From: Heptranchias perlo
Lineage: Eukaryota
Direction: 5' to 3'
Assembly: GCF_035084215.1 (NCBI RefSeq)
Contig: NC_090346.1
Coordinates: 41,540,001 to 41,604,000 of the forward strand
Length of the DNA stretch: 64,000 nt
In this document: piece after piece, positions 19,591-59,479 of the stretch
Layout of the letters: each line of letters starts with the position of its first letter
How positions within the stretch are numbered: position 1 is the stretch's first letter
Made by a program: the position numbers and the translations under genes
The notes under the pieces: generated by a model
The model's database searches: none
Told to the model about the DNA's origin: nothing
What the model saw: the letters and a program-made list of their open reading frames with translations, nothing else

Positions 19591-19748
19591 TTATAGTCCA
19601 ACAAATTTATTTTAAATTCCACAAGCTTTCGGAGGAGGAAGCCTCCGAAAGCTTGTGGAATTTAAAATAAATTTGTTGGACTATAACTTGGTGTTGTAAA
19701 ATTGTTTACAATTGTCAACCCCAGTCCATCACCGGCATCTCCACATCA
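19591..19748. mobile_element. Penelope-like palindromic insertion (45-bp arms) inside a CR1, 12-bp TSD
   Basis: Arms 19591-19635 / 19642-19686; TSD tatattcacgag at 19579-19590 and 19749-19760. Confidence 0.8.
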
Positions 19749-38755: not shown

Positions 38756-38868
38756 ATAACCTAGCCTCTGTTGATCACATCCTTCTGGTTCTTTCTGGCA
38801 AAGGAGGAGTTGGGAAAAGCACCATAACAACAGAGTTAGCACTTGCACTGAGGAATGCAGGGAAAAAG
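38756..38868 (+). CDS. NUBP2: NUBP2 exon 2 (P-loop [10 protein letters not shown])
   Basis: Reads [38 protein letters not shown], the deviant Walker A of the Mrp/NBP35 family; acceptor acaaAG, donor AAG|GTAAGA. Confidence 0.93.
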
Positions 38869-40362
38869 GTAAGATAAAACAAATGTAGATAAGATGTCGA
38901 ATATTCTACTAATGCTCAACAAAAATGATCATATGTCGTTATATATGAAGGGTATTAGTTTTTTTAAAAGGTCCCTTTTCTGTCACATGATAATCTCAAT
39001 GCTGAGTCCATTAAGGGCAAAACATGACGGCAGAAAAGAAACGGCCGTGCAAAACCTGGTGATGGTAACAAAAGAAACAAATCCAAATTAAAGAAGTTTA
39101 AGCCTTTTCTGCTCATCGTGCCTATGCAACTGCCAGCTCTGCGCCAGAGGTATTAACTCTAGTCTAATCTTCCAGCTCTTTCTAAAATATAACTTATAAA
39201 GTCACTGGCACTATTTTTGAAGCTGTTTTCTTCTGAACTTTGTTCCACATCATACAGTATTCCCCAACCATTAGGGCACACAACTGCTTCCTAAACCTGT
39301 TCCTGAGCAATCAACTAGGGCGTATGCAAGATTGTTCAGCACCTCGAGACCAGTCTAATTGAAACAAAGAACTCACTGTTGAAAATTACAATGTTTAAGG
39401 CAATCCTTTGTTCCAGCAGTCTACAGTGCAACTACGTAGTTTGCCACCATGAAATACTTCCAGGTCACTGTTGCCAGAGCATTTCTGATTTGCTGGCAGA
39501 AGCAATCTAAAATTTTTGTTTTTGTCAAATTTGCTTTAAATCTCATCAGAGGGAAAAGAAAGTGGGACATAACTAAGAAAAAATTAAATGTTTAAAATAC
39601 TTATTTTTAAAAAAACTTATTTAAAAAAAAATGTAAATTCAAAAAGAAAAGAATACAAATGTTAGAATCCTTTTGTGTTCTTTCCAAATGCTTATCCAAT
39701 TCACTTTTAAATTTAGTTTCTGTCTCAATAGCTACTTATGGTAAAACATTCCATATTCCAATAATGCTCTGAAAAAAATTCTAGCTTCCCTCTTTTTTCT
39801 GTAAATCTTGAGCCTGATTTGAATGAGTAATAATTTTTCACTATGTACTCTCTGAAATCCTTGAATAATTTTGAAAACCTCTAATTGATCTTTTCCCCTC
39901 ATTTAGCCTTCTCTATTCCAGTGATAAAACCCCTAGTTTCCTCATACCCCTAGTAACCTCTACTCTTGGTATCATTCTAGTTAATCCCTGCTGTACCCAA
40001 TGCAGGGTTCTAATATTCTTCATATAATGGAGTACCCAGAACTGCACACAAGACCTGGGAGTGGGCAAAGTATCCTTTGACTTGCAAACAACATTTCAAG
40101 ATTAGTTAACAAAATCAAATAACTTTGAATTCCTTGCTGTTCCATGTTTAATGCAGCTTGCATTTTAACACACTATAGCAGAGTGACTGAGATTTTTTTG
40201 AGACCCATTGATTCTGTAATACATAAAGAAGTTTTAATTTTGTGAAAAAGTTGAAGGTATGTAATCAAAATATTCACTGCATTTAATAATAAATGACAAG
40301 CTCCATTCTAAGGTTGACTCTTTTTCCAACAATGACCAATTCCTCTAGGTTTTAGTATCTGT

Positions 40363-40935
40363 GGACTCTATAGAACCTTGGTTAGACCACACTTGGAGTA
40401 CTGTGCACAGTTCTGGTCTCCATATTATAAAAAAGTATATAGAGGCATTGGAGAAGGTGCGAAAAAGATTCACAAGAATGATACCAGAACTGAGAAGATA
40501 TACTTATCAGGAAAGGCTGAACAGGCTGTTTTCTCTAGAAAAGCAAAGGCTGAGGGGTGACTTGATAAAGGTCTTTAAGATAATGAAAGGGTTTGATAGG
40601 ATAGATGTAGAGAAAATGTATCCACTTGTGGGGAAGTCCAAAACTAGAGGTCCTAAATATAAGATAGGCACTAATAAATCCAATAGGGAATTCAGGGGAA
40701 ACTTCTTTACCCAAAGAGTGGTAAGAATGTGGAACGTGCTACCACAAGGAGCAGTTGAGGCAAATAGCATAGCTGTATTTAAGGGGAAGCTAGATAAGCA
40801 TATGTGGGAGAAAGGAATAGAAGAGTGTGCTGATAGGGTTAGATGAAGAGGAGTGGGAGGAGACTCTTGTGCAGCATAAACGCTGGCATAGACCAGTTGG
40901 GCCAAATGGCCTGTTTTTGTGCTTTAGACGCAATG
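40363..40935 (+). mobile_element. CR1 LINE 3' end
   Basis: [36 protein letters not shown]. Confidence 0.85.
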
Positions 40936-40993
40936 TAAATTAAAGTCCTTTCAGTTGCTCGTTTAATTTATTGCTGAATTGCTTTTATTTTAG

Positions 40994-41192
40994 GTTGGAA
41001 TTCTGGACATTGATCTCTGTGGTCCCAGCATCCCTCGGATGCTGAATGTTCTGAATAGTGCTGTACACCAATGCGATGCTGGTTGGGTACCAGTTTATGT
41101 AGACAAAGATAAAACAATGTGCTTGATGTCAATAGGCTTTCTCTTGGAGACTCCAGATGAAGCTGTGATTTGGAGAGGGCCAAAGAAAACAG
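40994..41192 (+). CDS. NUBP2: NUBP2 exon 3 ([17 protein letters not shown]...[10 protein letters not shown])
   Basis: Acceptor ttttAG, donor CAG|GTGAGG; 199 nt; Mrp/NBP35 signature WRGPKK. Confidence 0.94.
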
Positions 41193-41836
41193 GTGAGGTC
41201 ATATTACTTTAACACACACAACAGAAGTATCTTGTGCTGTGGTTCATCAATAATTAATTAAATGTAATTTTTCACTGTCTGGAACATTCCTTCAGCATGT
41301 TGGTGACTTTTTCATATAGTGCACAGGTTACAGCTGACAATTTTGACGAGAAATTGATTTTTGATCTTGCTGTGTAGAGATAAATAGAAAATGTTTAATT
41401 GTAATAAAATTCAAGCAGGGGATCTGAATTGGTGGTACAGGTGCTTCCCTGAAGCTCAAAGCTTTACTTGAGACTGATATTTCTATACCAGCATAGTTGG
41501 TCATAAAAATGTGTGTTGGGACTGGTGCACGTCTGTTGCACTTCAAACATTGCACTTAAGAATATCCAGTCTTTTTAAGAAAAAAGAGTACGGCAGTCAT
41601 TTCATAATGTTTTATTTTTCTGCCAGAAGTTTACAAATACTTGCTAATCTGCAAACTTTGTTCAACGGTAATTGATCCTGTGCAGACAGAAGTTAGATTT
41701 TATCTTTAAAGGCATAGGCCAAGTTTAACACAACTGCACCTCAGCAGCAAAATAATACATTCTGTGTTACATGGTGTAATGCTCCTGTTACAAAATGCCA
41801 CATTCTCCAACTTAGTATGAGCAAAGATATGATCCA

Positions 41837-41966
41837 GGCCCTGAAATTCCACAGGTTCTATCAGTCTCCTGGTGTAACTCAAGTGGGAAACCGGTGTAAC
41901 ACCCAGGGAAATGGTGTAAATGGCATGAATTGCAGCAGGAGACCAGTAGAATAGAATTTCAGGGCC
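41837..41966. mobile_element. MITE-like element, 13-bp TIR ggccctgaaattc
   Basis: Perfect inverted termini 41837-41849 / 41954-41966. Confidence 0.5.
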
Positions 41967-42676
41967 CTTATGTCTGTGTGCACTTCCTGCTAATTTCTTC
42001 CACTGGCAGGAGGGGTGTAATTCCAGATTGACAAGTTTATATAGGCTGTTTCCATTATAAATGTGGGCATGGCAGTTTATAATGGAAATATAAAAATAAT
42101 AGAATGAAAGTACAAAAAAATATAAGTATCACTTTAAAATGGGGACTGAATTATGTCTGTGTCAATTGACCCGTGTCAATTGACCCTCGTCAATTACCAC
42201 AGCCTCTAACCCCACTTCACCTGGAGACCACACTTGGTCTTGAATATCTGTGTGCAATGCCATGGGGGATTGATTAGCATATAGAAAAATACATTTGAGA
42301 CTTGAACTTAGAATTTCCTTTCTTCAATTAGTAGGAAATGTGGTCCCTGATGGCTTGGGGTATTTATTTAAATAGTCCTTTTTAAAGTACAGATTTCAGG
42401 TCAGTCTTATAAAAGGCCCAGAAAGGGGTGGTGCATTTTCTTTGGGTTGTATAAAGTAGACCTCCTCTAACTGAGAGAGGTGCAGTTGAGTGATGTGTAA
42501 CCCTGGGACTTAAACTTGCAACCAGATGTTTGATCCAATAGACTACTAAAACTAGTTTATGAACATAGAACTCAAGCTAGAACTGTGAGACTTTTAATTG
42601 ACCTCTGAATTTATAAACAAACTAAATTTTCTTGTGTTTGTTTTAGACTTCTAAAAACTTTTTCTCCCCCACTTAG

Positions 42677-42831
42677 CTCTTATCAAGCAGTTCATTTCTG
42701 ATGTGGCCTGGGGAGAACTCGACTATCTCATTGTAGACACTCCGCCTGGGACCTCTGATGAACACATCTCTGTCGTGGAGTGCCTTCGCCGGCATAAACC
42801 TGATGGAGCTCTTTTGGTTACAACACCTCAG
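42677..42831 (+). CDS. NUBP2: NUBP2 exon 4 ([29 protein letters not shown]...VTTPQ)
   Basis: Acceptor acttAG, donor CAG|GTGCAT; 155 nt; [10 protein letters not shown] motif. Confidence 0.94.
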
Positions 42832-44690
42832 GTGCATTTAATGAGGAATTAAGCTGCTGTGTTGTTTTTTAAAGTTTGTCTGTGTACCAGGCCAATAAAT
42901 GTTGATAGTTGAATATTCTGTAGATTAATTGTTTTAATAATTAGGTATTTGGATGCTTTAAATCACGACACACTGTATTCTGTCCTAGCTAAATGTGCAT
43001 TTTATATTCCAAGCAGCCCTGTCCATATTGTGGAAAATTTACAAAGCGTGTTTGAACTAGGATCCCCGATGACAGACTTTGTTGATATTTGTCATGAGTA
43101 ATGGCATGTAGATCCTGTTCTTTCAGTTATGGACACAGAGTTCTGGTTTCAGCTGGAGCTGTTGTAGGAGAGACTGAACAGAGCCAAATTTCTATTCATA
43201 AGGCTGGCAGGGAAATTCTGATATGAAGCCATGGTGTGCTCACCCAAAATCTGCTCGGCCTGTGCTGATAGCGCCTCAGATGCACCAAAAACCTTGTGGG
43301 TGTTTTGGCCCAATATCTCTTTGACAAAGTACAGTGATCTTTACATATAGTACTATATTATACCAAGCCCGTGGCTGATTGAAGGTGATAAATACTTGCT
43401 AATGAAGCAGTTCCCCAATTTAAAGTTACATTTTTTGGTTCAGAAATACCCCTTTTCCTGGGGTTTTTCATGAAGCCTTGCATTGCTCCATTTCATACAA
43501 AGCACACACTGGAGTAACATAAAGCAAGAGGAGTTTCTCTTACCTTTTTGAGTGATTATGATATTAACAAAGTTAGATTTAAGTTAGATACTACTATAAA
43601 TGGCTGTTTCTGTTTAGTGTGATGCTACAGGGGTGCCCATGGGTGGGTGGCAAATAGTCTTAGCTGTAGTGTTTGTTAGGATTGCCCTCTAGTGTCAGCA
43701 ATGGACATTGCGAAGATTCTACTGTTCTTTTGATCCTGTTTAAATTTCAAGTGGTAGCATTGGTGTTAACTTTAATTTTGTAAACCAGGTCCGTTCTTGT
43801 TTAGCATTATAATTCCACCAACTGGGATAATATTTGAGAATCTCTTTGCTGCTTTTCCTCAGTCTAACTGCCGTTTTTACTCTTCTGTCTGTGCGAATGC
43901 AGTAAGTGATATTCTAGCTGGTACTGATGGTTTTGTACCTCCCTGTTCTCCTTTTATCGAACCTGGTGCTGCACCATGATTCAATCAATGCTGTTGTCTT
44001 TCTGTGTCTCAGAAAATATTCTATACTTGGCGTTGAGATCAGGTTCAGGCATCCCAAGTCATCTTTATTTCTGTTCGTAACGTCTATAAAACGGTATTGG
44101 AGCTGCTAAATGCAACTTTATTTTTGAAAATGCTGTTTCCTTACCCTCTAGCATCTGTTCCTTGTCATCTGACAGACAATTCCTCTCTCATTTCTCACCT
44201 CCCAGTGCCTCTTTGTTGCAAACTTTATTGTTTCTCCCTATTTCACTGATACTGGTCTAGTCAGTGCTCCTCTGAAATTTCCTCCCTCTCTAAGCTGTAT
44301 ATGTGCCATCTTACAGACTCTTCTTCCCACATCCTCTGTTGAAATCAAGCTACAACGTCATACTGTAATTCATTCCTTCACTGAACCTCAAAACTATTGA
44401 ACTCCTATCCTCCCACAATCTTATGGCTTTTAAAAACTCAAGCTTGGCATTGCCTAATCACTATTTCCTGTTTTGTTTTATCTCTTTTCTACTTGGGGAT
44501 AAAAAAATTCCATCTCTCCTGAAAGCTTCTGGATTATGATTCTGTGAGCAGTGATCAATCTACGCTACCTTGCCCAAGAGGTCATTAGTCACACTAGACC
44601 ATGAATGTTGACCAATAAAGGATTTAAAAAAAAAAACAACTGAGTGCTTTGGATGAATACGGTTTCTAAACTTTTTGGTTTTATTTATAG

Positions 44691-44801
44691 GCAGTGTCAA
44701 TAGGAGATGTAAGAAGAGAATTGACGTTCTGCAAGAAAACTGGGTTACCAGTGGTGGGAATAATTGAAAACATGAGTGGCTTTGTTTGCCCTAACTGTTC
44801 G
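44691..44801 (+). CDS. NUBP2: NUBP2 exon 5 ([18 protein letters not shown]...[12 protein letters not shown])
   Basis: Acceptor ttatAG, donor TCG|GTGAGT; 111 nt; Fe-S binding CPxC motif. Confidence 0.94.
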
Positions 44802-45381
44802 GTGAGTATAAAATTGAAAGCTTTTTGAACTATGCTAACTGAGGGTTTGTTAGAGCACTTTGATTAAGTGAAAAAACTTTTACAGGTTTAAAAACCTGGG
44901 CTAGTTGCTGATATTGTCCATATTAATAGACATTGTAATGTAACATTTTATTACAACTGTCAAACATTTGAAAGGCTTGATGGGTTTAAATGAATGGAGA
45001 CTTTCATCCCATTAATCTTGGCTAGGAGTGAAAATATGCTTCTACCTGCACAATTTCCTTAACTCTTAAATGTTAATGAAAAATCTTTGATCATCTAATC
45101 TATTGAAATGTTAGACTGCAGTTTGTGTGTTGTTTTTAAACCATGATATCACTAGTGAGCTAAACAAAATGTGCATCTGTGGCTGACTTCCACTTGAATC
45201 ATGAGAAGTTAAATAGTAATTGATGTGATGTTACAAAGAGTGTATCCCTGCTTGAGTAATGGTAATACCTGTTCTAATTAAACACAATTTAATACAAGTC
45301 TCAAGGCTGTAATGACTTGGAAAGGAATATAATGGTGCTGTTTCAGATTCTTGACTTCAATAAATGATTATTGTTTTTCAG

Positions 45382-45451
45382 GAATGCACTAATGTATTTT
45401 CCAGAGGAGGGGGAGAAGCACTTGCCCAGCAGTCTGGGGTTCCATTTTTAG
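45382..45451 (+). CDS. NUBP2: NUBP2 exon 6 (ECTNVFSRGGGEALAQQSGVPFL)
   Basis: Acceptor tttcAG, donor TAG|GTGAGC; 70 nt. Confidence 0.93.
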
Positions 45452-45808
45452 GTGAGCATCCTAAAGTGGCCTTTAGAGTCATTCATCACTTTTGTGAGTG
45501 CTTGAATTTAATTCATCTCAGCCAACCATCTTGACCACATTTATGTAATAAAAGGATTTCTTTTCAAAATATAATCTGTTAAAATACCTTTTTGTAATCA
45601 ATGTATGGCATGTCTTGTGTTCATTTTGAGGAACATCATTGAGAAAAAGAAATTTATAATTTTGCTAATATTTCAGTCTGTGAGTGTGTAGTGTCATACC
45701 TGTTCTAAAAATTGTAACTCACTCTATAAAAGCTTTGTACAAGGCATGTTGTAGGACATGCGGCGTGGTGATGGTTGCTTTTTAGTGAATGACTCAAATT
45801 TCACGTGC

Positions 45809-46168
45809 ATATGAGGGGCACAGATAGGATGGATACTAAGGAGCTTTTTCCCTTCGTTGAGGGTTCTATAACAAGGGGACATAGATTCAAGGTAAAAGGC
45901 GGGAGGTTTAGAGGGGATTTGAGAAAGAACTTTTTCACCCAGAGGGTGGTTGGAGTCTGGAACTCACTGTCTGAAAGGGTTGTGGAGGCAGGAACCCTCA
46001 CAACATTCAAGAAGCATTTGGATGAGCACTTGAAATGCCATAGCATACAAGGCTACGGACCAAATGCTGGAATATGGGATTAGAGTAGGCAGGGCTGATG
46101 GCCGGCGCGGACACGATGGGCCGAAGGGCCTCTATCCGTGCTGTATAACTCTATGACTCTATGACTCT
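45809..46168 (+). mobile_element. Young CR1 3' end with (ctatgact)n tail
   Basis: ORF 45805..46083; octamer tail ctctatgactctatgactct. Confidence 0.85.
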
Positions 46169-47794
46169 AAAGCAAGGTCACAGATACGGAAACCCATTTA
46201 ACCCATCTAGATAAAAATTTCCAACCCCCCCCCCCAATAAATTACAGCATTCAACTATCTCTTAAATGACTCCAAGGTTTTCCAATTCCAAACATTACTA
46301 TACTGCTGGAAGTCCATTCGGAGTGTTAATCACTTTTTTTTGGTGTACCAAACATTTCGATATTAGTCCTGTATTTGTTTTTCTCCAGTTTGAAACTGTG
46401 TCCAATTGTTCTACATTGAGGACATGCCTTTAGTAGTGCTTCAGATTTGTCTTTTCTATGCCTTTAATACCTTGTATACTTTTATAAGGTCCACTCTCAA
46501 TGCTGTCCTTTCAAAGCTGTAGAGCATGAGTTCCCCAATGTTTCTTTGTCATTCAGTCCTCTGAAATTAGGGATCAGTTGCATGGCTTTTCCATTTACTA
46601 CCCTGAATGTTTCCCCTGAGTCTCGGTGACCAAAACCAGACAACATACTCTGAGTCTGACTAGAGTACTGCATAGTTTCAGCATGATTGCCTCCAACCTA
46701 CTCCATTGATTTAGCAGTATAATGCAGCTATTTTACAGTTGGGTCAGATCTGGAGAAAGTGGGAAAGACTGGGACAGAGACGAGTGAAAGCTCCTCAGCT
46801 TTCTATTTTGCTGCTTCTGCTGACTGAACATGTTAATTGCTATTAACATTCCTTGATCTCTTTCAACATCACCCGTAGCTGGTCAAACAACATTCATAGG
46901 GTTCATATGTTGGCCATTTTTAATTTGTGCACAGTCTTGTACTTGATTAGTTCAATTTCATCTGTCAATGTTTCACCCATGTGCAGATTTTATCTAGTTC
47001 CTTCTGTAGGTCTGCATCATTGGAGTGACCTCCCTCCCCTCCCCCATGTAATGTCTGCTGATCTGACCAATTTGAATTAAATTTTTGGATCCAAGTTTTA
47101 GATTCCCTTTCTCTCCAGGTCTTTGGGTTGACTTTATGCTTCGCTTCCATAAATGGGCTTTAGGTCGCAATGTTTTCCATACTTCCACGCATGCATGACT
47201 GAGAGCTCAGTGCATGCACTGTGTTTTCCCAATTTTTTTTTGTCAGACCTCACCTTTCAGCGCCCCTCAGTGCTGCATTTTCTGCCTTAACTGTGGCAGG
47301 CATACAGAAGATAGATGGGTCAGACTTGGAGAGAGCGAGAAAGACTTTGAGACAGACAGACGGATACAGAGATGAGGGAACATTCCTCAACCGTGCAGAC
47401 GGACAGAGGCAAAGCATTTAACAGAAACAGACAAAGACGTATAAATAACATTATAATGTGGGAAATGAGCAGATTGTTGTATGAAGAGAAAGTGACAATT
47501 TTTAACCTGTTAGCAACTCCATGAGAGATCACTAGATTTCCCAGGCCTTTTTTAAAAATCCTTAGTAGTATCAATGAAGTGAACCTCTTTAAAGGCCCTG
47601 TACTTTGTGTGCCACTTTAAATGGTTTTCATTTTGACATTTCTGCCTTATGGTGGTGATACTCAGATGAAAAGAAAAGCTGGGGTCTGCAGTGCTGGTCC
47701 ATTTTGTAATGTTCATGTTTGATATTTATATGAATTTTTTTGAAACAAATCAAATTGTTGAATGTGTCACTGCAAGATTCTGCAACTTTACTTT

Positions 47795-47978
47795 GGCCTT
47801 GAAATTATGCTGCGGATGATGGGTATAAATTGCTAACATGTTTGTCTGAAATTCTTTCTCTGCTACTTTAATAGAGACTTTAATCCATTTATTTTAAACC
47901 AGTGAAAATGTTAAAATGCAGACAATTTCAGACAAACACAAGTTCGAATCAATTATTTCGCATTGTAATTTCAAGGCC
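47795..47978. mobile_element. MITE-like element, 13-bp TIR ggccttgaaatta plus an internal inverted repeat
   Basis: Termini 47795-47807 / 47966-47978; internal tgtttgtctgaaatt / aatttcagacaaaca. Confidence 0.55.
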
Positions 47979-48148
47979 GTAGGATTTTTTTTCCCCTTTT
48001 TTCATTTGCAGCAGCAATAGTGCTGATCACTATTAATAGTGGCTTGCTTTAGTTAAGGCTTTATTGAGCCATAGACTGAACTGACTTGTAGGTGGCAGTT
48101 TTCCTCTTTGCTCTTGAAGAATCACTGTTTATATTTTCTCCTACCTAG

Positions 48149-48303
48149 GGCGTGTTCCTCTAGATCCTCAGCTGGCGCATAGTCTGGAAGAAGGTAGAGA
48201 CTTCATCCAAGCCTTTCCAAAGAGCGCAACCTTTGATGCCATTAATAACATAGTGAAGAAGATATTAAACAGTGACAGTGAATCTTCTGCACTTCGCACA
48301 TGA
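48149..48303 (+). CDS. NUBP2: NUBP2 last coding exon (RVPLDPQLAHSLEEGRDFIQAFPKS...ALRT*)
   Basis: Acceptor acctAG, TGA at 48301-48303; the seven exons sum to 819 nt = 272 aa + stop. Confidence 0.92.
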
Positions 48304-50186: not shown

Positions 50187-51797
50187 TGTAACATTATTGC
50201 ATTGTGCCATGGGTTGGCAGGACACATGTTTGCATCTATGATTCTCTTCCCCTGAGTTACATTAGATATATTATGGAGGAAGGGTTTTTCTCGTCATTAA
50301 GGTAAGGAATGTAGGTCCTGGGTAAGAATTTCTAGATTAGGTACAGCAGAGCCAGGTGAAACACAAAGCTTCCCTCTAAACTGCCACAGCAATATGCCTT
50401 TACCCTAACGTCACTAGTTCCAATTGAACTTCCATTTTCTTCAGTAATTCTTAATGGGTGAGACTTTTAATTTGTGAATTGTAGACAATATCAAGCTGTG
50501 GGATCAACCCAAACTTTGTTTGCAGTGGAACCTTTAACGGCTGACAGAGGAGGTTTTTACCTGATTAGTCTGGGCCAAATTCAAACAACTGAAAAGGACT
50601 GTATGCTAATTAATAGCACTACCTAGTTCCTATGCTACATTCTGCTTTTTTTAGCTGTGACATTATGGAGAATCAAAGAATAGAAACTAAGGGTATTTCT
50701 CCACATGGAGGGGAATCAAAAGGAGAGTCATTGCTGTGCTACTCTCCTAGACCTCCTTATTCAGATTGGGATTTAGGGAGACAACAGGGGAAAAATGAGG
50801 AAAAAATAAGTGCGATGGAAGAGGGATTTAGACTGTCACAAAAAATTATAGAAATAATTATGGAGCTTGCATTTGTTTTGAAACAAACTTTGCTGTACGT
50901 TTTGAATTAAAAGGCGAACATCAAAACATTCAGACCATGACCAGAGTGTTGTTTATTACCTAGTGTATATAAGATGTGTTCAAATTTTAAACAGAATTGT
51001 TGAATATGATTTATGTTCCTCAGGGCAGTGTCCTAGGCCCAACCATCTTCAGCTGCTTCATCAATGACCTTCCCTCCATCATAAGGTCAGAAATGGGGAT
51101 GTTCGCTGATGACTGCACAGTGTTCAGTTCCATTCGCAACCCCTCAAATAATGAAGCAGTCCGAGCCCGCATGCAGCAAGACCTGGACAACATCCAGGCT
51201 TGGGCTCATAAGTGGCAAGTAACATTCGTGCCAGATAAGTGCCATGCAATGACCATCTCCAACAAGGGAGAGTCTAACCACCTCCCCTTGACATTCAACG
51301 GCATTACCATCGCCGAATCCCCCACCATCAACATCATGGGGGTCACCATTGACCAGAAACTTAACTGGACCAGCCATATAAATACTATGGCTACTAGAGC
51401 AGGTCAGAGGCTGGGTATTCTGCAGCGAGTGACTCACCTCCTGACTCCCCAAAGCCTTTCCACCATCTACAAGGCACAAGTCAGGAGTGTGATGGAATAC
51501 TCTCCACTTGCCTGGATGAGTGCAGCTCCAACAACACTCCAGGAGCTCGACACCATCCAAGATAAAGCATCCCGCTTGATTGGCACCCCATCCACCACCC
51601 TAAACATTCACTCCCTTCACCACCGGCGCACTGTGGCTGCAGTGTGCACCATCCACAGGATGCACTGCAGCAACTCGCCAAGGCTTCTTCGACAGCACCT
51701 CCCAAACCCGCGACTTCTACCACCTAGAAGGACAAGAGCAGCAGGTACATGGGAACAACACCACCTGCACGTTCCCCTCCAAGTTACACACCATCCT

Positions 51798-52012
51798 AAA
51801 CAATTTTACAACACCAAGTTATAGTCCAGCAATTTTATTTTAAATTCACAAGCTTTCGGAGACTTCCTCCTTCCTCAGGTAAATGTTCGCCGAAGGAAGG
51901 AGGAAGTCTCCGAAAGCTTGTGAATTTAAAATAAAATTGCTGGACTATAACTTGGTGTTGTAAAATTGTTTACAATTGTCAACCCCAGTCCATCACCGGC
52001 ATCTCCACATCA
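51798..52012. mobile_element. Penelope-like element terminus with inverted 5' duplication (79-bp arms) and ~11-12 bp TSD
   Basis: Arms 51797-51875 / 51894-51972; flanking direct repeat (a)cacaccatcct at 51786-51797 and 52012-52023; same 3' end (...ccagtccatcaccggcatctccacatca) as the element at 19591. Confidence 0.8.
51844..51884 (-). ncRNA. Minimal type I hammerhead ribozyme motif of a Penelope-like element
   Basis: Reverse strand reads AUUUAC-CUGAGGA-A-GGAG-GAAGU-CUCC-GAAA-GC-UU-GUGAAU: stem I AUUUAC/GUGAAU, core CUGANGA and GAAA, stem II GGAG/CUCC, palindromic mini stem III (AGCU). Confidence 0.72.
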
Positions 52013-52866
52013 CACACCATCCTGACTTGGAAATATATCGCCGTTCCTTCATTGTCGCTGGGTCAAAATCCTGGAACTCCCTTCCTAACAGCACAGTGGG
52101 AGAACCGTCACCACACGGACTGCAGCGGTTCAAGAAGGCGGCTCACCACCACCTTCTCAAGGGCAATTAGGGATGGGCAATAAATGCTGGCCTCGCCAGT
52201 GACGCCCACATCCCGTAGGTAGCATAGTGGTTATGTTACTGGGCTAGTAATCCAGAGACCTGGACTAAAATCCAGAGTCATGAGTTCAAATCCCGCCACG
52301 GCAGCTGGCGAATTTAAATTCAATTAATTAATTAAATTCAATTAATTAAATAAAAATCTGGAATTAAAATACTAGTATCAGTGATGATGGCCATGAAACT
52401 ACCGGATTGTCGTAAAAACCCATCTGGTTCACTAATGTCCCTTAGGGAAGGAAACCTGCCGTCCTTACCCGGTCTGGCCTATATGTGACTCCAGACCCAC
52501 AGCAATGTGGTTGATTCTTAATTGCCCTCTGAAATGGCCTAGCAAGCCACTCAGTTGTAAAATCTCGCTACGAAAAGTCATAATAAGAATAAAACCGGAC
52601 GGACCACCCGGCATCGGACCACTAGGCACCGGACACGACAACGGCAAAATACCAAGCCCAGTCAACCCTGCAAGGTCCTCCTTACTAACATCTGGGGACT
52701 TGTGCCAAAATTGGGAGAGCTGTCCCACAGACTAGTCAAGCAACAGCCTGACATAGCAATACCTGCAGAATCATATCTTTCAGCCAACGTCCCAGACTCT
52801 TCCATCACCATCCCTGGGTAAGTCCTGTCCCACCGGCAGGACAGACCCACCAGAGGTGGCGGTACA

Positions 52867-55497
52867 GTGATATACAGTCAGGAGGGAGTGGCCCTGGGAG
52901 TCCTCAACATTGACTCTGGACCCCATGAAATCTCATGGCATCAGGTCAAACATGGGCAAGGAAACCTCCTGCTGATTACCACCTACCGTCCTCCCTCAGC
53001 TGATGAATCAGTCCTCCTCCATGTTGAGCACCACTTGGAGGAAGCACTGAGGGTCGCAAGGGCACAAAATGTACTCTGGGTGGGGGACTTCAATGTCCAT
53101 CACCAAGAGTGGCTCGGTAGCACCACTACTGACCGAGCTGGCCGAGTCCTGAAGGACATAGCTGCCAGACTGGGCCTGCGGCAGGTGGTGAGCGAACCAA
53201 CACGAGGGAAAAACTTACTTGACCTCGTCCTCACCAATCTCCCTGTCGCAAATGCATCTGTCCATGACAGTATTGGTAGGAGTGACCACCGCACAATCCT
53301 CGTGGAGATGAAGTCCCGTCTTCGCACTGAGGACACCATCCAACGTGTTGTGTGGCACCACCACCGTGCTAAATGGGATAGATTCAGAACGGATCTAGCA
53401 GCTCAAAATTGGGCATCCATGAGGCGCTGTGGGCCATCAGCAGCAGCAGAATTGTATTCCACCACAATCTGTAACCTCATGGCCCGGCATATTCCTCACT
53501 CTACCATTACCAACAAGCCAGGGGATCAACCCTGGTTCAATGAGGAGTGTAGAAGAGCATGCCAGGAGCAGCACCAGGCGTACCTAAAAATGAGGTACCA
53601 ACCTGGTGAAGCTACAACTCAGGACTACATGCATGCTAAACAGCGGAAGCAACATGCTATAGACAGAGCTAAGCGATTCCACAACCAACGGATCAGATCA
53701 AAGCTCTGCAGTCCTGCCACATCCAGTCGTGAATGGTGGTGGACAATTAAACAACTAACGGGAGGAGGAGGCTCTGCAAACATCCCCATTCTCAATGATG
53801 GCGGAGTCCAGCACGTGAGTGCAAAAGACAAGGCTGAAGCGTTTGCAACCATCTTCAGCCAGAAGTGCCGAGTGGATGATCCATCTCAGCCTCCTCCCGA
53901 TATCCCCACCATCATGGAAGCCAGTCTTCGGCCAATTCGATTCACTCCACGTGATATCAAGAAACGGCTGAGTGCACTGGATACAGCAAAGGCTATGGGC
54001 CCCGACAACATCCCAGCTGTAGTGCTGAAGTCTTGTGCTCCAGAACTAGCTGCACCTCTAGCCAAGCTGTTCCAGTACAGCTACAACACTGGCATCTACC
54101 CGACAATGTGGAAAATTGCCCAGGTGTGTCCTATCCACAAAAAGCAGGACAAATCCAATCCGGCCAATTACCGCCCCATCAGTCTACTCTCAATCATCAG
54201 CAAAGTGATGGAAGGTGTCGTCGACAGTGCTATCAAGCGGCACTTACTCACCAATAACCTGCTCACCGATGCTCAGTTTGGGTTCCGCCAGGACCACTCG
54301 GCTCCAGACCTCATTACAGCCTTGGTCCAAACATGGACAAAAGAGCTGAATTCCAGAGGTGAGGTGAGAGTGACTGCCCTTGACATCAAGGCAGCATTTG
54401 ACCGAGTGTGGCACCAAGGAGCCCTAGTAAAATTGAAGTCCATGGGAATCAGGGGGAAAACTCTCCAGTGGCTGGAGTCATACCTAGCACAAAGGAAGAT
54501 GGTAGTGGTTGTTGGAGGCCAATCATCTCAGCCCCAGGGCATTGCTGCAGGAGTTCCTCAGGGCAGTGTCCTAGGCCCAACCATCTTCAGCTGCTTCATC
54601 AATGACCTTCCCTCCATCATAAGGTCAGAAATGGGGATGTTCGCTGATGACTGCACAGTGTTCAGTTCCATTCGCAACCCCTCAGATAATGAAGCAGTCC
54701 GAGCCCGCATGCAGCAAGACCTGGACAACATCCAGGCTTGGGCTCATAAGTGGCAAGTAATATTCGCACCAGATAAGTGCCAGGCAATGACCATCTCCAA
54801 TAAGAGAAAGTCTAACCACCTCCCCTTGACATTCAACGGCATTACCATCGCCGAATCCCCCACCATCAACATCCTGGGGGTCACCATTGACCAGAAACTG
54901 AACTGGACCAGCCATATAAATACTGTGGCTACGAGAGCAGGTCAGAGGCTGGGTGTTCTGCGGCGAGTGACTCACCTCCTGACTCCCCAAAGCCTTTCCA
55001 CCATCTACAAGGCACAAGTCAGGAGTGTGATGGAATACTCTCCACTTGCCTGGATGAGTGCAGCTCCAACAACACTCAAGAAGCTCGACACCATCCAAGA
55101 TAAAGCAGCCCGCTTGATTGGCACCCCATCCATCACCCTAAACATTCACTCCCTTCACCATCGGCGCACTGTGGCTGCAGTGTGTACCATCCACAGGATG
55201 CACTGCAGCAACTCGCCAAGGCTTCTTCGACAGCACCTCCCAAACCCGCAACCTCTACCACCTAGAAGGACAAGAGCAGCAGGCGCATGGGAACAACACC
55301 ACCTGCACGTTCCCCTCCAAGTCACACACCATCCCGACTTGGAAATATATCGCCGTTCCTTCATCGTCGCTGGGTCAAAATCCTGGAACTCCCTTCCTAA
55401 CAGCACTGTGGGAGAACCGTCACCACACGGACTGCAGCGGTTCAAGAAGGCGGCTCACCACCACCTTCTCGAAGGCCAACAAATACCCCAGGTTTGA
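52867..55497 (+). CDS. LINE endonuclease/reverse transcriptase ORF (portion downstream of the nonsense codon; last residues come from the IGFALS insert)
   Basis: 876-aa ORF in the track with APE and RT motifs; the true reading frame extends upstream to 52561. Confidence 0.8.
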   Translation: MIYSQEGVALGVLNIDSGPHEISWHQVKHGQGNLLLITTYRPPSADESVLLHVEHHLEEALRVARAQNVLWVGDFNVHHQEWLGSTTTDRAGRVLKDIAARLGLRQVVSEPTRGKNLLDLVLTNLPVANASVHDSIGRSDHRTILVEMKSRLRTEDTIQRVVWHHHRAKWDRFRTDLAAQNWASMRRCGPSAAAELYSTTICNLMARHIPHSTITNKPGDQPWFNEECRRACQEQHQAYLKMRYQPGEATTQDYMHAKQRKQHAIDRAKRFHNQRIRSKLCSPATSSREWWWTIKQLTGGGGSANIPILNDGGVQHVSAKDKAEAFATIFSQKCRVDDPSQPPPDIPTIMEASLRPIRFTPRDIKKRLSALDTAKAMGPDNIPAVVLKSCAPELAAPLAKLFQYSYNTGIYPTMWKIAQVCPIHKKQDKSNPANYRPISLLSIISKVMEGVVDSAIKRHLLTNNLLTDAQFGFRQDHSAPDLITALVQTWTKELNSRGEVRVTALDIKAAFDRVWHQGALVKLKSMGIRGKTLQWLESYLAQRKMVVVVGGQSSQPQGIAAGVPQGSVLGPTIFSCFINDLPSIIRSEMGMFADDCTVFSSIRNPSDNEAVRARMQQDLDNIQAWAHKWQVIFAPDKCQAMTISNKRKSNHLPLTFNGITIAESPTINILGVTIDQKLNWTSHINTVATRAGQRLGVLRRVTHLLTPQSLSTIYKAQVRSVMEYSPLAWMSAAPTTLKKLDTIQDKAARLIGTPSITLNIHSLHHRRTVAAVCTIHRMHCSNSPRLLRQHLPNPQPLPPRRTRAAGAWEQHHLHVPLQVTHHPDLEIYRRSFIVAGSKSWNSLPNSTVGEPSPHGLQRFKKAAHHHLLEGQQIPQV

Positions 55498-55912
55498 TCT
55501 CCTGAATCTGATTATTGTTCAGAGTGAGGACTTCCAATTGTACTAAGCCATCAAATATGTTTTCAGAAAGGCTTTTGATTTTGTTGTACCCAAGTTGGAG
55601 TTCCTCCAGAAACTGAAGTTCTCTGAATGTCCTGTGCCTTAACCCTGTGATGGAATTGTTGAGCAACCGAAGCACATGTAGATTTAGGAGTCCAGAGAAT
55701 GTTTCTTCATGTAATACAGTAAGGCGATTATGGGACAAGTCTAACCATCTGAGAGATTTCATTCCTATAAAAGCTCTAGGTACGATGGTGCTGATCTGGT
55801 TATAACTCATATAAAGCTTCTGGAGCTTTTGCAGCTTCACAAAGATGTTCCCTTTTATGCCTCTCAACAGGTTTCCTGACAAATCAAGTTGCTTCAGCTC
55901 TGTCAAACTGAT
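55470..55912 (-). pseudogene. 443-bp duplicated fragment of the IGFALS LRR-coding exon embedded in a LINE 3' end
   Basis: Matches 57604-58046 (offset 2134) with a single visible mismatch (55766 T vs 57900 C; Ile vs Met). It explains ORF 55442..55918. Confidence 0.92.
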
Positions 55913-56151
55913 GGGCAATAAATGCTGGCCTCGCCAGCGACGCCCACATCCCGTGAACGAATTTTTTAAAAACTACAAATAAGTAGTCTAGAGATTCTAG
56001 ATCTTAGTTTTTCTGACAAGATAGGTTCATGGTCTGAATGCTTTACTGTTTGCCTTTTAATTCAGAACATACAGCAAAGTTTGTTTCAAAACAAATGCAA
56101 GCTCCATAATTAGGGCATAAAAGATAATTCTGTTATCTAAAATAGTAATGG

Positions 56152-56358
56152 GGGCCAAAATTCCTGATCCATTAATTTTCATGTAAGTGTAGACTTGAAT
56201 AAAAATATTGAGTCAATTTTCTGAAATAAATTAATCCATAATTTCCCCTAGGTATTACTGGGAAGTAAATCTAATTTGGGGTAAATTTAATAGAAGCCAA
56301 ATATCACTTTTTACTCATACTTATTTTGTAAAATTAGCAAAGGCAGGAATTTTGTCCC
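56152..56358. mobile_element. MITE-like element, 15-bp imperfect TIR
   Basis: gggccaaaattcctg ... caggaattttgtccc (1 mismatch). Confidence 0.4.
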
Positions 56359-56858: not shown

Positions 56859-58672
56859 TCAGCAATTACCAAAGTAGTCCTCACTGATGTCTCTCAGATC
56901 TGTACTAGCAATGGTTTGTGGGCTTGCACATGTGATGTTGTTGTATATGTACATGATTGTATGAGATTCATCTCCTTCTACTGCTGATTCGAAATAACGA
57001 GGAGCAACATTGGGATTCTCCAGACAGTAATCCCTGAGTGACTTCAACAAGCAGTCGCAGTGCCACTTGTTACCCTCCAACAATAGTTGCTCTAATTGTG
57101 ATGACTGCTCCAAAAATTGACCTGGGAAATACCTTATAGAGTTGCCCCTAAGGTTCAGATATTTCAACTTGGTCAATGGTGTAAAAGTATGATTATAGAA
57201 AAACTCAATAAAGTTGTCTGATAAATCAAGCCAAGAGAGACGTTGAAGAGGCTGATAGGTGGTATCAGAAATGTATGCAAGTTCATTGCACTTGAGTAGA
57301 AGATATTCCAGATTTGGTATACCTGTGAAGGCCTGAGGAGATAGCTGTATCAGTTTGTTATACCTCAAATCCAGTTCCAAAAGCTCTTGTAAGTTACTGA
57401 GGCTCTGATTGTCAATAACTGAAATGTGATTGTTTTGCATGAAGAGTCTTCGAAGGCTGATCAATCCAGAAAATGTGTTTGGTTGAATTCTACTGACTGC
57501 GTTGTTTTCTAAATGCAGGCTATGAAGATTAGGAAGACCTTTGAATGCACATTCTGGTAAATTCTTTAAAGAGTTACTGGATAGATTCAGTACAGCTACC
57601 TCACGAAGGCCAACAAATACCCCAGGTTTGATCTCCTGAATCTGATTATTGTTCAGAGTGAGGACTTCCAATTGTACTAAGCCATCAAATATGTTTTCAG
57701 AAAGGCTTTTGATTTTGTTGTACCCAAGTTGGAGTTCCTCCAGAAACTGAAGTTCTCTGAATGTCCTGTGCCTTAACCCTGTGATGGAATTGTTGAGCAA
57801 CCGAAGCACATGTAGATTTAGGAGTCCAGAGAATGTTTCTTCATGTAATACAGTAAGGCGATTATGGGACAAGTCTAACCATCTGAGAGATTTCATTCCC
57901 ATAAAAGCTCTAGGTACGATGGTGCTGATCTGGTTATAACTCATATAAAGCTTCTGGAGCTTTTGCAGCTTCACAAAGATGTTCCCTTTTATGCCTCTCA
58001 ACAGGTTTCCTGACAAATCAAGTTGCTTCAGCTCTGTCAAACTGATAAAAAGTTGGGACTGCAGGTAAATTAACCTATTTCCTGCCAAAATAAGCTCCTT
58101 TAAGTTTGGTAAATCATGAAACCCCGCAGCAGGCAAAACTGCCAGATTATTCCATCCCAGATTTAGGTACCAGAGATGGGAGAGGCCAGAAAACAACCCA
58201 TCTTCAATTTTACCAAAGTTGTTATTGTTCAGACTAAGCGAGCCAAGAGCTGGAGTGTGGAGGAATGCATTTGGTACCAGGTATTTCAATTTGTTCCTTT
58301 CCAAATGCAGGTGAACCAGTAGTTTCAAACCCCAGAAGGCATGTTGCTCAACACTAACTATGTAGCCATTCTCCAGGTTCAAGAAGTCCAGATTAGACAG
58401 GTTCCTGAAAGCATGGGATGGAAGAACTGTGAAGTTGTTACAGTCAAACCAAACCGCTTTAGCATTAACTGGTATATCTTTAGGAATGCTGGTAAGATTA
58501 CGAGAGCTGCAGTAGACATTCAGTTCCTCACTGTAGTCATCAAAAATACAGGTGCACACTTGGGGGCATTTGAAATTTTCATCATCTGACTGTTCCTCTG
58601 GTGGTAATTGTGATACTGTTCCCAACAGCGGGATGAACCTCAGACAAACAATAACCGATACGACGCAAAATT
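56859..58672 (-). CDS. IGFALS: IGFALS (IGF-binding protein acid-labile subunit) main coding exon; short first exon not located
   Basis: Phase-1 acceptor (poly-T)AG at 58674-58673, hydrophobic signal segment FCVVSVIVCLRFIPLLG, LRRNT CPQVCTC..ELNVYCSSRNLT, a long LRR array, LRRCT GNKWHCDC...NNITCASP...DLRDISEDYFGNC*; syntenic, convergent with NUBP2. Confidence 0.93.
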
Positions 58673-59479
58673 CTAAAAAAAAAATAAAAATAACACAACA
58701 TGCAATCAGAGAATATCAATCATTCAGAATTTGGGTAATGCTTATATTATAATCATATCACTTTGAAAAGGATCATTAAAATAAATTAACCATCTCCATG
58801 TTAAGTCGGGGGCTGCTTATTAGGGACAGGAGCATTATTACCATGTAACATCCAATGTATTATTCTGCTGCTAAGGTGCAGCTGAATGTAACTTCACCTG
58901 TCCCTTTACGACCATAAGATCTGACTATGCATCCTGAGGGCAATTAGAGTCCAGTTGCTCTCAGGCACATACTAAGATAAGTTAGAGGGGATTGTTTCAC
59001 TGGAGATTCTTTGCTAATACTTTTTTTAAACATTGCTTTGCATCTGTCATGTCAGAAATGTGAAGTATATTAAATATAATTGAGCAATGTCATCACGTAG
59101 TTGTAATATCAAATCTCTGCATTATTTTTTCTATAGCAAAGGAAAATAACTTTAATTGGGAAATATAACAGAATAAATTTTATTCCTATAATACCACTGT
59201 TAAAAAGGACTACCACCGTACTCTTAGCATTTTTATTTAGGGCTTTGTTCAATTATGGGTTTTTTCAGTCCCCATTAACAGATACAGGAATTCTGTGATA
59301 TATGAAAACAAGTCTTCCCAGATTTTCTCATTACATGCAATCTAAGATAAACGATAACTGTCCTCCTATTTTGTATTACATAGAGCCATAGTGACCAACT
59401 TTACCAGCTTGGGTCATCCTTCAAATTAAAAAAAATAGCAAGATATATAGAAAAATGTATTCATCCTTCAAATTAGACA

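Follow-up and report, generated by a model that had tools for sequence, protein, structure and literature searches.

The window analysed here is a stretch of 64,000 nucleotides from Heptranchias perlo (NCBI RefSeq assembly GCF_035084215.1, contig NC_090346.1, positions 41,540,001 to 41,604,000 of the forward strand), and all positions refer to it. On the reverse strand, an intact open frame of 618 amino acids (56859..58715, -) encodes a leucine-rich-repeat protein. Its best protein matches are IGFALS of fishes and mammals, with 50-54% identity (E 1e-178 to 1e-200), and the frame represents the main coding exon of IGFALS. The exons at about 38.8-48.3 kb on the forward strand (38797..48300, +), with a stop near 48.3 kb, we take to be putatively NUBP2-like on the basis of short motifs and of the translation. 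Since the NUBP2-like exons lie on the plus strand and IGFALS on the minus strand, the two genes converge on a pair of LINEs. An 86-bp inverted repeat (50855-50940 and 56027-56112, 93%), unique in the 3.25-Gb genome, brackets both LINEs. Each of its arms contains ATTAAA, and the arms were about 128 nt apart before the LINEs arrived. Possibly, this repeat corresponds to mirrored poly(A) sites of the convergent genes or to a fragile hairpin.

The first element of the pair, LINE A (51015..52216, +), is an older, 5'-truncated sister of the second, LINE B, with 1.7% private-like changes compared to 0.64% in LINE B. A palindromic repeat of 206 bp is located within LINE A (51797-52002); a related piece is found at 19633-19748, and matches occur at several other loci. 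LINE B joins at the tail of LINE A. At this junction (52216/52217) the head of LINE B meets the tail of LINE A at a GT overlap, and roughly the last 18 bases of LINE A are gone. Nested or adjacent copies of the family are also present at loci L004, L018, L046, L077 and L091.

LINE B (52217..55972, +), which carries the insert, is a near full-length non-LTR element with endonuclease and reverse transcriptase (RT), as judged from its Pfam domains (RVT_1, E 4.8e-39; Exo_endo_phos_2, E 7.2e-14) and from 35 full-length sisters that are 1.1-2.5% distant. A protein-atlas comparison returned generic endonuclease-RT clusters only. The 5' head of the element (52211..52305, +) is tRNA-like according to ARAGORN and is common to the sisters, most of which, among the full-length ones, start to align at position 52218. 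The open frame of LINE B (52822..55497, +, 891 amino acids) lies behind a private in-frame stop codon at 52819-52821, with A52821 occurring in 0 of 38 sisters, and its C-terminus is now located inside the insert. Open frames of the family comprise about 970 amino acids, with the first Met near residue 245. A regular target-site duplication is absent among the 24 full-length sisters inspected. In 22 reconstructed family sites there was no sign of an L1-like TT/AAAA target preference; 16 of these sites have an A at the priming position, and one has five or more A.

The 3,253-nt body of LINE B contains no T4 run, and T4 runs are likewise absent in 33 of the 35 full-length sisters (L063-L101). The absence of T4 is statistically weak, with P values of 0.01 for base shuffling and of 0.07-0.12 for codon or Markov controls. 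Together, the tRNA-like head, the absence of T4 and the late first Met hint at an autonomous LINE that may be transcribed by Pol III and start its translation at a non-AUG codon. According to a published account (PMC10886601), Pol II is used by non-LTR elements, and our literature search found no paper matching a tRNA-headed autonomous LINE of the Pol III type. A LINE family that combines a tRNA-like head with one long ORF is possibly more interesting than the exon capture described in the following.

Close to the 3' end of LINE B, an insert of 443 bp (55470..55912, +) is a direct copy of a stretch in the IGFALS coding exon (57604..58046, +), as seen from the alignment and the open-frame list. 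Read on the LINE strand, it is antisense to IGFALS. The near-identity of the two stretches, which had been noticed in a first, sequence-only reading of this DNA, was confirmed by self-alignment of the window: 442 of 443 positions match, the single mismatch is T55766/C57900, and the match ends at both edges. The distance between donor and insert is 2134 bp. That reading had also proposed a search for further LINE copies with the IGFALS piece. A scan of the whole 3.25-Gb genome gave two matches to the 443-bp stretch, namely insert and source at this locus; the captured piece has not spread in further copies, as would be expected of a mobile gene-capturing subfamily. The donor frame is still open, so an intact donor lies beside a near-exact nearby copy, as in locally templated insertions. 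The insert corresponds to residues 224-371 of IGFALS and, because it falls within one exon, intron loss is not readable from it.

At the mismatch, the codon specifies Met in the gene and Ile in the copy (IGFALS frame). Contigs from two other organisms (runs X10 and X5, with 15/448 and 9/313 differences, respectively) carry C at this position; these relatives are too distant to bear on the presence of LINE B. Hence, the T is derived and arose in the copy as a single change from C to T (55766, +). Directly to the right of the source edge an A5 run is located (58047..58051, +), a possible nick and priming site; the 1857-nt exon frame contains six runs of this type. Recombination between the 443-bp direct repeats is predicted to delete 2,134 bp and to truncate IGFALS after residue 371. 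In the recombined product, eight residues derived from the LINE would be appended to IGFALS residues 1-371 (frame 55442-55972, -).

For the junctions, the choice of the reference is relevant. At the insertion site the LINE B subfamily, represented by 38 tails that share LINE B's T at 55133 together with A at 55285, reads CTCGAGGG (G in 34 of the 38 tails), and LINE A reads CTCAAGGG at the equivalent site. The LINE stretch which an insert-free LINE B would carry intact is GGGCAATTAGG. The left junction had been described as mere near-homology, with LINE A as the reference; the LINE B subfamily sequence instead yields an exact CGA overlap (55470..55472, +), common to subfamily and source, within a near-homology of 9 of 12 positions. 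The GAT microhomology of 3 nt proposed for the right junction (55910..55912, +) was seen in the alignment and in a junction contig of run X1. Since both CGA and GAT are exact, the case for microhomology is stronger than first stated; the chance of at least 3 nt of microhomology at one junction is about 0.05 in an equal-base model. The insert replaces 11 nt of the LINE including the stop codon. Thus, the loss of the stop codon holds, and the previously given length of about 13 nt is corrected by comparison with the LINE B subfamily.

To the right of the insert the LINE tail resumes, as had been claimed. This tail with its A-rich end (55913..55972, +) equals the commonest tail of the LINE B subfamily and does not contain any base of the exon's right flank. 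An assignment of the tail to LINE A, as part of a long target-site duplication, was rejected, because the tail matches the LINE B subfamily and the sisters are devoid of regular duplications. The insert is a direct local copy with two microhomologies, a small deletion and one derived change, and microhomology together with a small deletion is characteristic of locally templated insertions.

Comparable captures were sought in the family. In 98 sequences with 206 kb of aligned family DNA, a set picked by similarity and thus biased against interrupted copies, four internal insertions were found; three are other repeats, and the sole one consisting of unique local DNA is the IGFALS insert. The 3.25-Gb genome contains 8,883 exact normal tails and 25 tails that start at GAT behind other bases. 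By script, 13 of these 25 are point-mutated, 10 are tail-only and 2 have body sequence further up. The latter two are the locus described here and L107, which is interrupted by repeat-like DNA. At two control positions, the script labelled 9 of 15 tails and 20 of 30 tails (taken from 75) as tail-only, although a few such labels proved by eye to be short bodies or internal deletions (L125, L164, L171). Body-less tails are about equally common at these control positions, and GAT as a breakpoint hotspot was therefore rejected: in the family of LINE B, reverse transcription often stops within the tail, and GAT is not special. A tail hairpin as the cause was also discarded, since the fold was not significant (z = -1.26). 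No other capture of local unique DNA within 1.5 kb was found among the 25, 15 and 30 (of 75) tail matches. A left-junction pattern revealed no local capture in 30 of 83 matches examined; this pattern is leaky and misses the LINE B locus itself. On contig C23, 12 tail matches preceded by one and the same unusual dinucleotide are clustered at 1.7-29.9 Mb, perhaps as an amplified chimeric repeat.

The relative ages of insert and carrier were also compared. LINE B differs from the family majority in 26 of 3,252 columns, of which 12 are unique to LINE B and 21 are unique or rare, and its terminal branch in the tree amounts to 0.64%. If the capture was concurrent, 1.6-2.4 changes are expected in the insert, compared to one change seen (P 0.52 and 0.31). 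Divergence is 0.23% for the insert and 0.37-0.64% for LINE B. This dating is compatible with a capture at the time of insertion and, equally well or slightly better, with a later repair. One change in 443 positions fits neutrality.

Two origins had been suggested from the sequence, a double switch of the RT during insertion and a later microhomology-mediated insertion. Both fit the data, and dating fails to separate them. Tentatively, and with a confidence slightly below an even chance, we favor an insertion templated locally, with the template switched twice during reverse transcription of the LINE into the site. The growing strand would have left the LINE template, copied the exon and come back. 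In this sequence of events, the first-strand cDNA would copy about 63 nt of the tail and then slip off the LINE RNA. The freed cDNA would pair by GAT with a plus-strand template of the neighboring exon, either the genomic top strand opened at a nick or a NUBP2 read-through RNA. After copying of 443 nt of the exon, it would pair again with the LINE RNA at CGA and finish the remaining 3.2 kb. IGFALS sense RNA, missed in the sequence-only reading, could also serve as template if the top strand was extended.

We favor the double switch because it is located in the first stretch copied by the RT, where the family often drops off, and because the source edge adjoins the A5 run, which would suit a nick. 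The A5 run next to the source was noticed only afterwards and, with five or more A in just one of the 22 reconstructed family sites, is a weak clue to priming. The ages of LINE B and insert are compatible with the double switch. Against it, the template would be longer and farther away than published L1 templates, and the strand would have to return to the same RNA. Furthermore, the observed junction pattern is also left by host break repair.

Host repair, to which we assign less than an even chance, is only slightly less likely than the double switch. LINE B would have inserted normally. A break arising later near its stop codon would then have been repaired either by synthesis primed by microhomology (SDSA, MMBIR or theta-type), with the exon at a distance of 2.1 kb as template, or by the RT, with IGFALS RNA as the source of a patch on the top strand. 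A microdeletion and microhomology, with neither a duplication nor a poly(A) of its own, are features of class 2 templated sequence insertions. The insert is also less diverged than LINE B, but this age gap is not significant, and host repair leaves to chance both the position within 75 nt of LINE B's 3' end and the A5 run at the source edge.

A variant of the double switch, in which the LINE endonuclease nicked twice at a distance of 2.1 kb, appears unlikely. The cDNA would have hopped into the nick at GAT/AAAAA, extended by strand displacement over 443 nt and returned to the RNA. If true, the locus would be a fossil of a there-and-back exon capture by a non-L1 vertebrate LINE, and, if this route was shown, LINEs would have a way of acquiring coding DNA within their own sequence instead of downstream of it.

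Even less probable is a separate short RT event primed at the A5 run of the exon. Its tail-only product, joined to the exon by GAT, would have been copied into LINE B by means of the 60 nt of tail that both have in common; closure would have followed at CGA, and the gene would have remained intact. The right junction resembles about 9-10 other tail-only insertions starting at GAT genome-wide, and A5 is located exactly where such an insertion would prime. However, this route requires two steps and a lost intermediate, and the final tail matches the LINE B subfamily without a base of the right flank of the exon.

An assembly or haplotype artefact, by which the exon was misplaced into the repeat, is very improbable in view of short-read contigs from one sample, possibly the one that was assembled. 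In run X1, a contig of 54 nt with a depth of 11, compared to 12-16 for unique neighbors, crosses the right junction (55883-55936) with 0 mismatches; it comprises 30 nt on the insert side and 24 nt on the tail side and is thus below the 31-nt bridging rule. Contigs of X1 and X2 break exactly at 58046, as expected from a fork between two copies. Of the two junctions for which spanning reads had been called for, the right one is therefore represented, at near single-copy depth, and the left one has no contig among those listed, although contigs can attest the presence of a junction but not its absence. In addition, the X4 contig continues unbroken through both source ends, which would suit an artefact, as does the fact that all supporting runs stem from one sample. 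A halved depth, named previously as a sign of misassembly, cannot be read either way: the mean contig depth of 15.1-15.3 is compatible with one or two copies, and the implied single-copy depths of 12.6 and 13.4 fall inside the 12.3-16 of the neighbors, so the test is uninformative. As to whether the T/C difference distinguishes copies or alleles, both bases are present in contigs of the sample (at 57900, T in X1 and C in X2 and X4), and the derived base belongs to the copy. With high probability, the duplication is a genuine feature.

That the insert was kept because LINE-driven antisense RNA regulates IGFALS is hardly credible. In its favor are the antisense orientation of the insert on the LINE strand and the tRNA-like head as a candidate promoter. 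However, the copy is single and young, its one change fits neutrality, and a Pol III transcript would end early at T4 runs (55560, 55573 and 55579). The LINE body is free of T4 and the first T4 lies 90 nt into the insert; consequently, the predicted Pol III transcript stops early and lacks the tail, in line with the earlier suggestion that TTTT runs of the insert would stop Pol III before the tail. Were Pol III to be driven by the tRNA-like head, the antisense portion would be limited to about 90 nt. With the private stop codon at 52819-52821 in addition, the proposed LINE-driven antisense control of IGFALS is unsupported. Read-through of the NUBP2-like gene would be in antisense to IGFALS whether the insert is present or not. 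Two candidate poly(A) signals of IGFALS, at 56291 and 56061, lie ahead of the insert; in an IGFALS transcript extending further, the copy would be present in sense orientation. Contigs of the presumed RNA run X22 cover neither the insert nor the IGFALS exon and are uninformative either way. Nothing points to a role in IGF regulation, and the product of the insertion is likely inert, being a single copy with a private ORF stop and one neutral change.

Among known systems, 3' transduction shares with the present case that host DNA travels with a LINE. In 3' transduction, host DNA from the flank of the source element is located downstream of the LINE tail. Here, it sits upstream of the tail of LINE B, without the downstream position and own poly(A) of a transduced flank, and ordinary 3' transduction was rejected, as in the sequence-only reading.

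The closest relatives are L1 templated insertions, of which 22 were reported in about 3,600 somatic solo L1s (Zumalave et al., 10.1101/2024.08.27.596794); three further L1 insertions with DNA templated near the site have been described (Mendez-Dorantes et al., PMC11702581). As in the present case, nearby non-LINE genomic DNA is copied into the element and thereby duplicated, and release of the cDNA followed by pairing with nearby DNA was proposed as explanation (10.1101/2024.08.27.596794). In contrast, the IGFALS insert is a germline event in a non-L1 family without regular target-site duplication, and has LINE sequence on both sides. Its template of 443 bp at a distance of 2.1 kb is outside the L1 values of less than 250 bp for the length and at most 15 bp for the distance from the site (10.1101/2024.08.27.596794), which are a typical range rather than a strict definition.

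Class 2 patches are defined by microdeletion and microhomology (Onozawa and Aplan, PMC5110952). The IGFALS insert agrees with them in its repair-like junctions, in the intact donor and in the absence of a target-site duplication and of poly(A) on the patch. It differs in that the donors described for class 2 are distant, whereas the IGFALS donor lies at 2.1 kb, with a LINE 3' end as recipient. In inserts of zebrafish ZfL2, likewise a non-L1 LINE of fish, the cDNA end gains flank-derived sequence by annealing (Yamaguchi et al., PMC4245944); these 5' extras, situated at the final 5' junction, comprise a few nucleotides, as opposed to hundreds inside the element. LINE-1/RNA chimeras, which result from a switch of template or from twin priming (Law et al., PMC13174262), also fuse a gene-derived piece, sometimes antisense, to a LINE in one insertion. 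Their partners originate elsewhere and are placed 5' to the LINE part, in contrast to the internal, local piece in LINE B.

Neither this locus nor an internal there-and-back capture in a family other than L1 was described in the papers found by our literature search, outside of which most subscription papers and supplements lay. The insert is likely a one-off copying accident of a known kind, which happened during insertion or during DNA repair. It is somewhat long and distant for its class, and represents a clean germline example of such an accident in a family other than L1, with a donor farther away than is usual.
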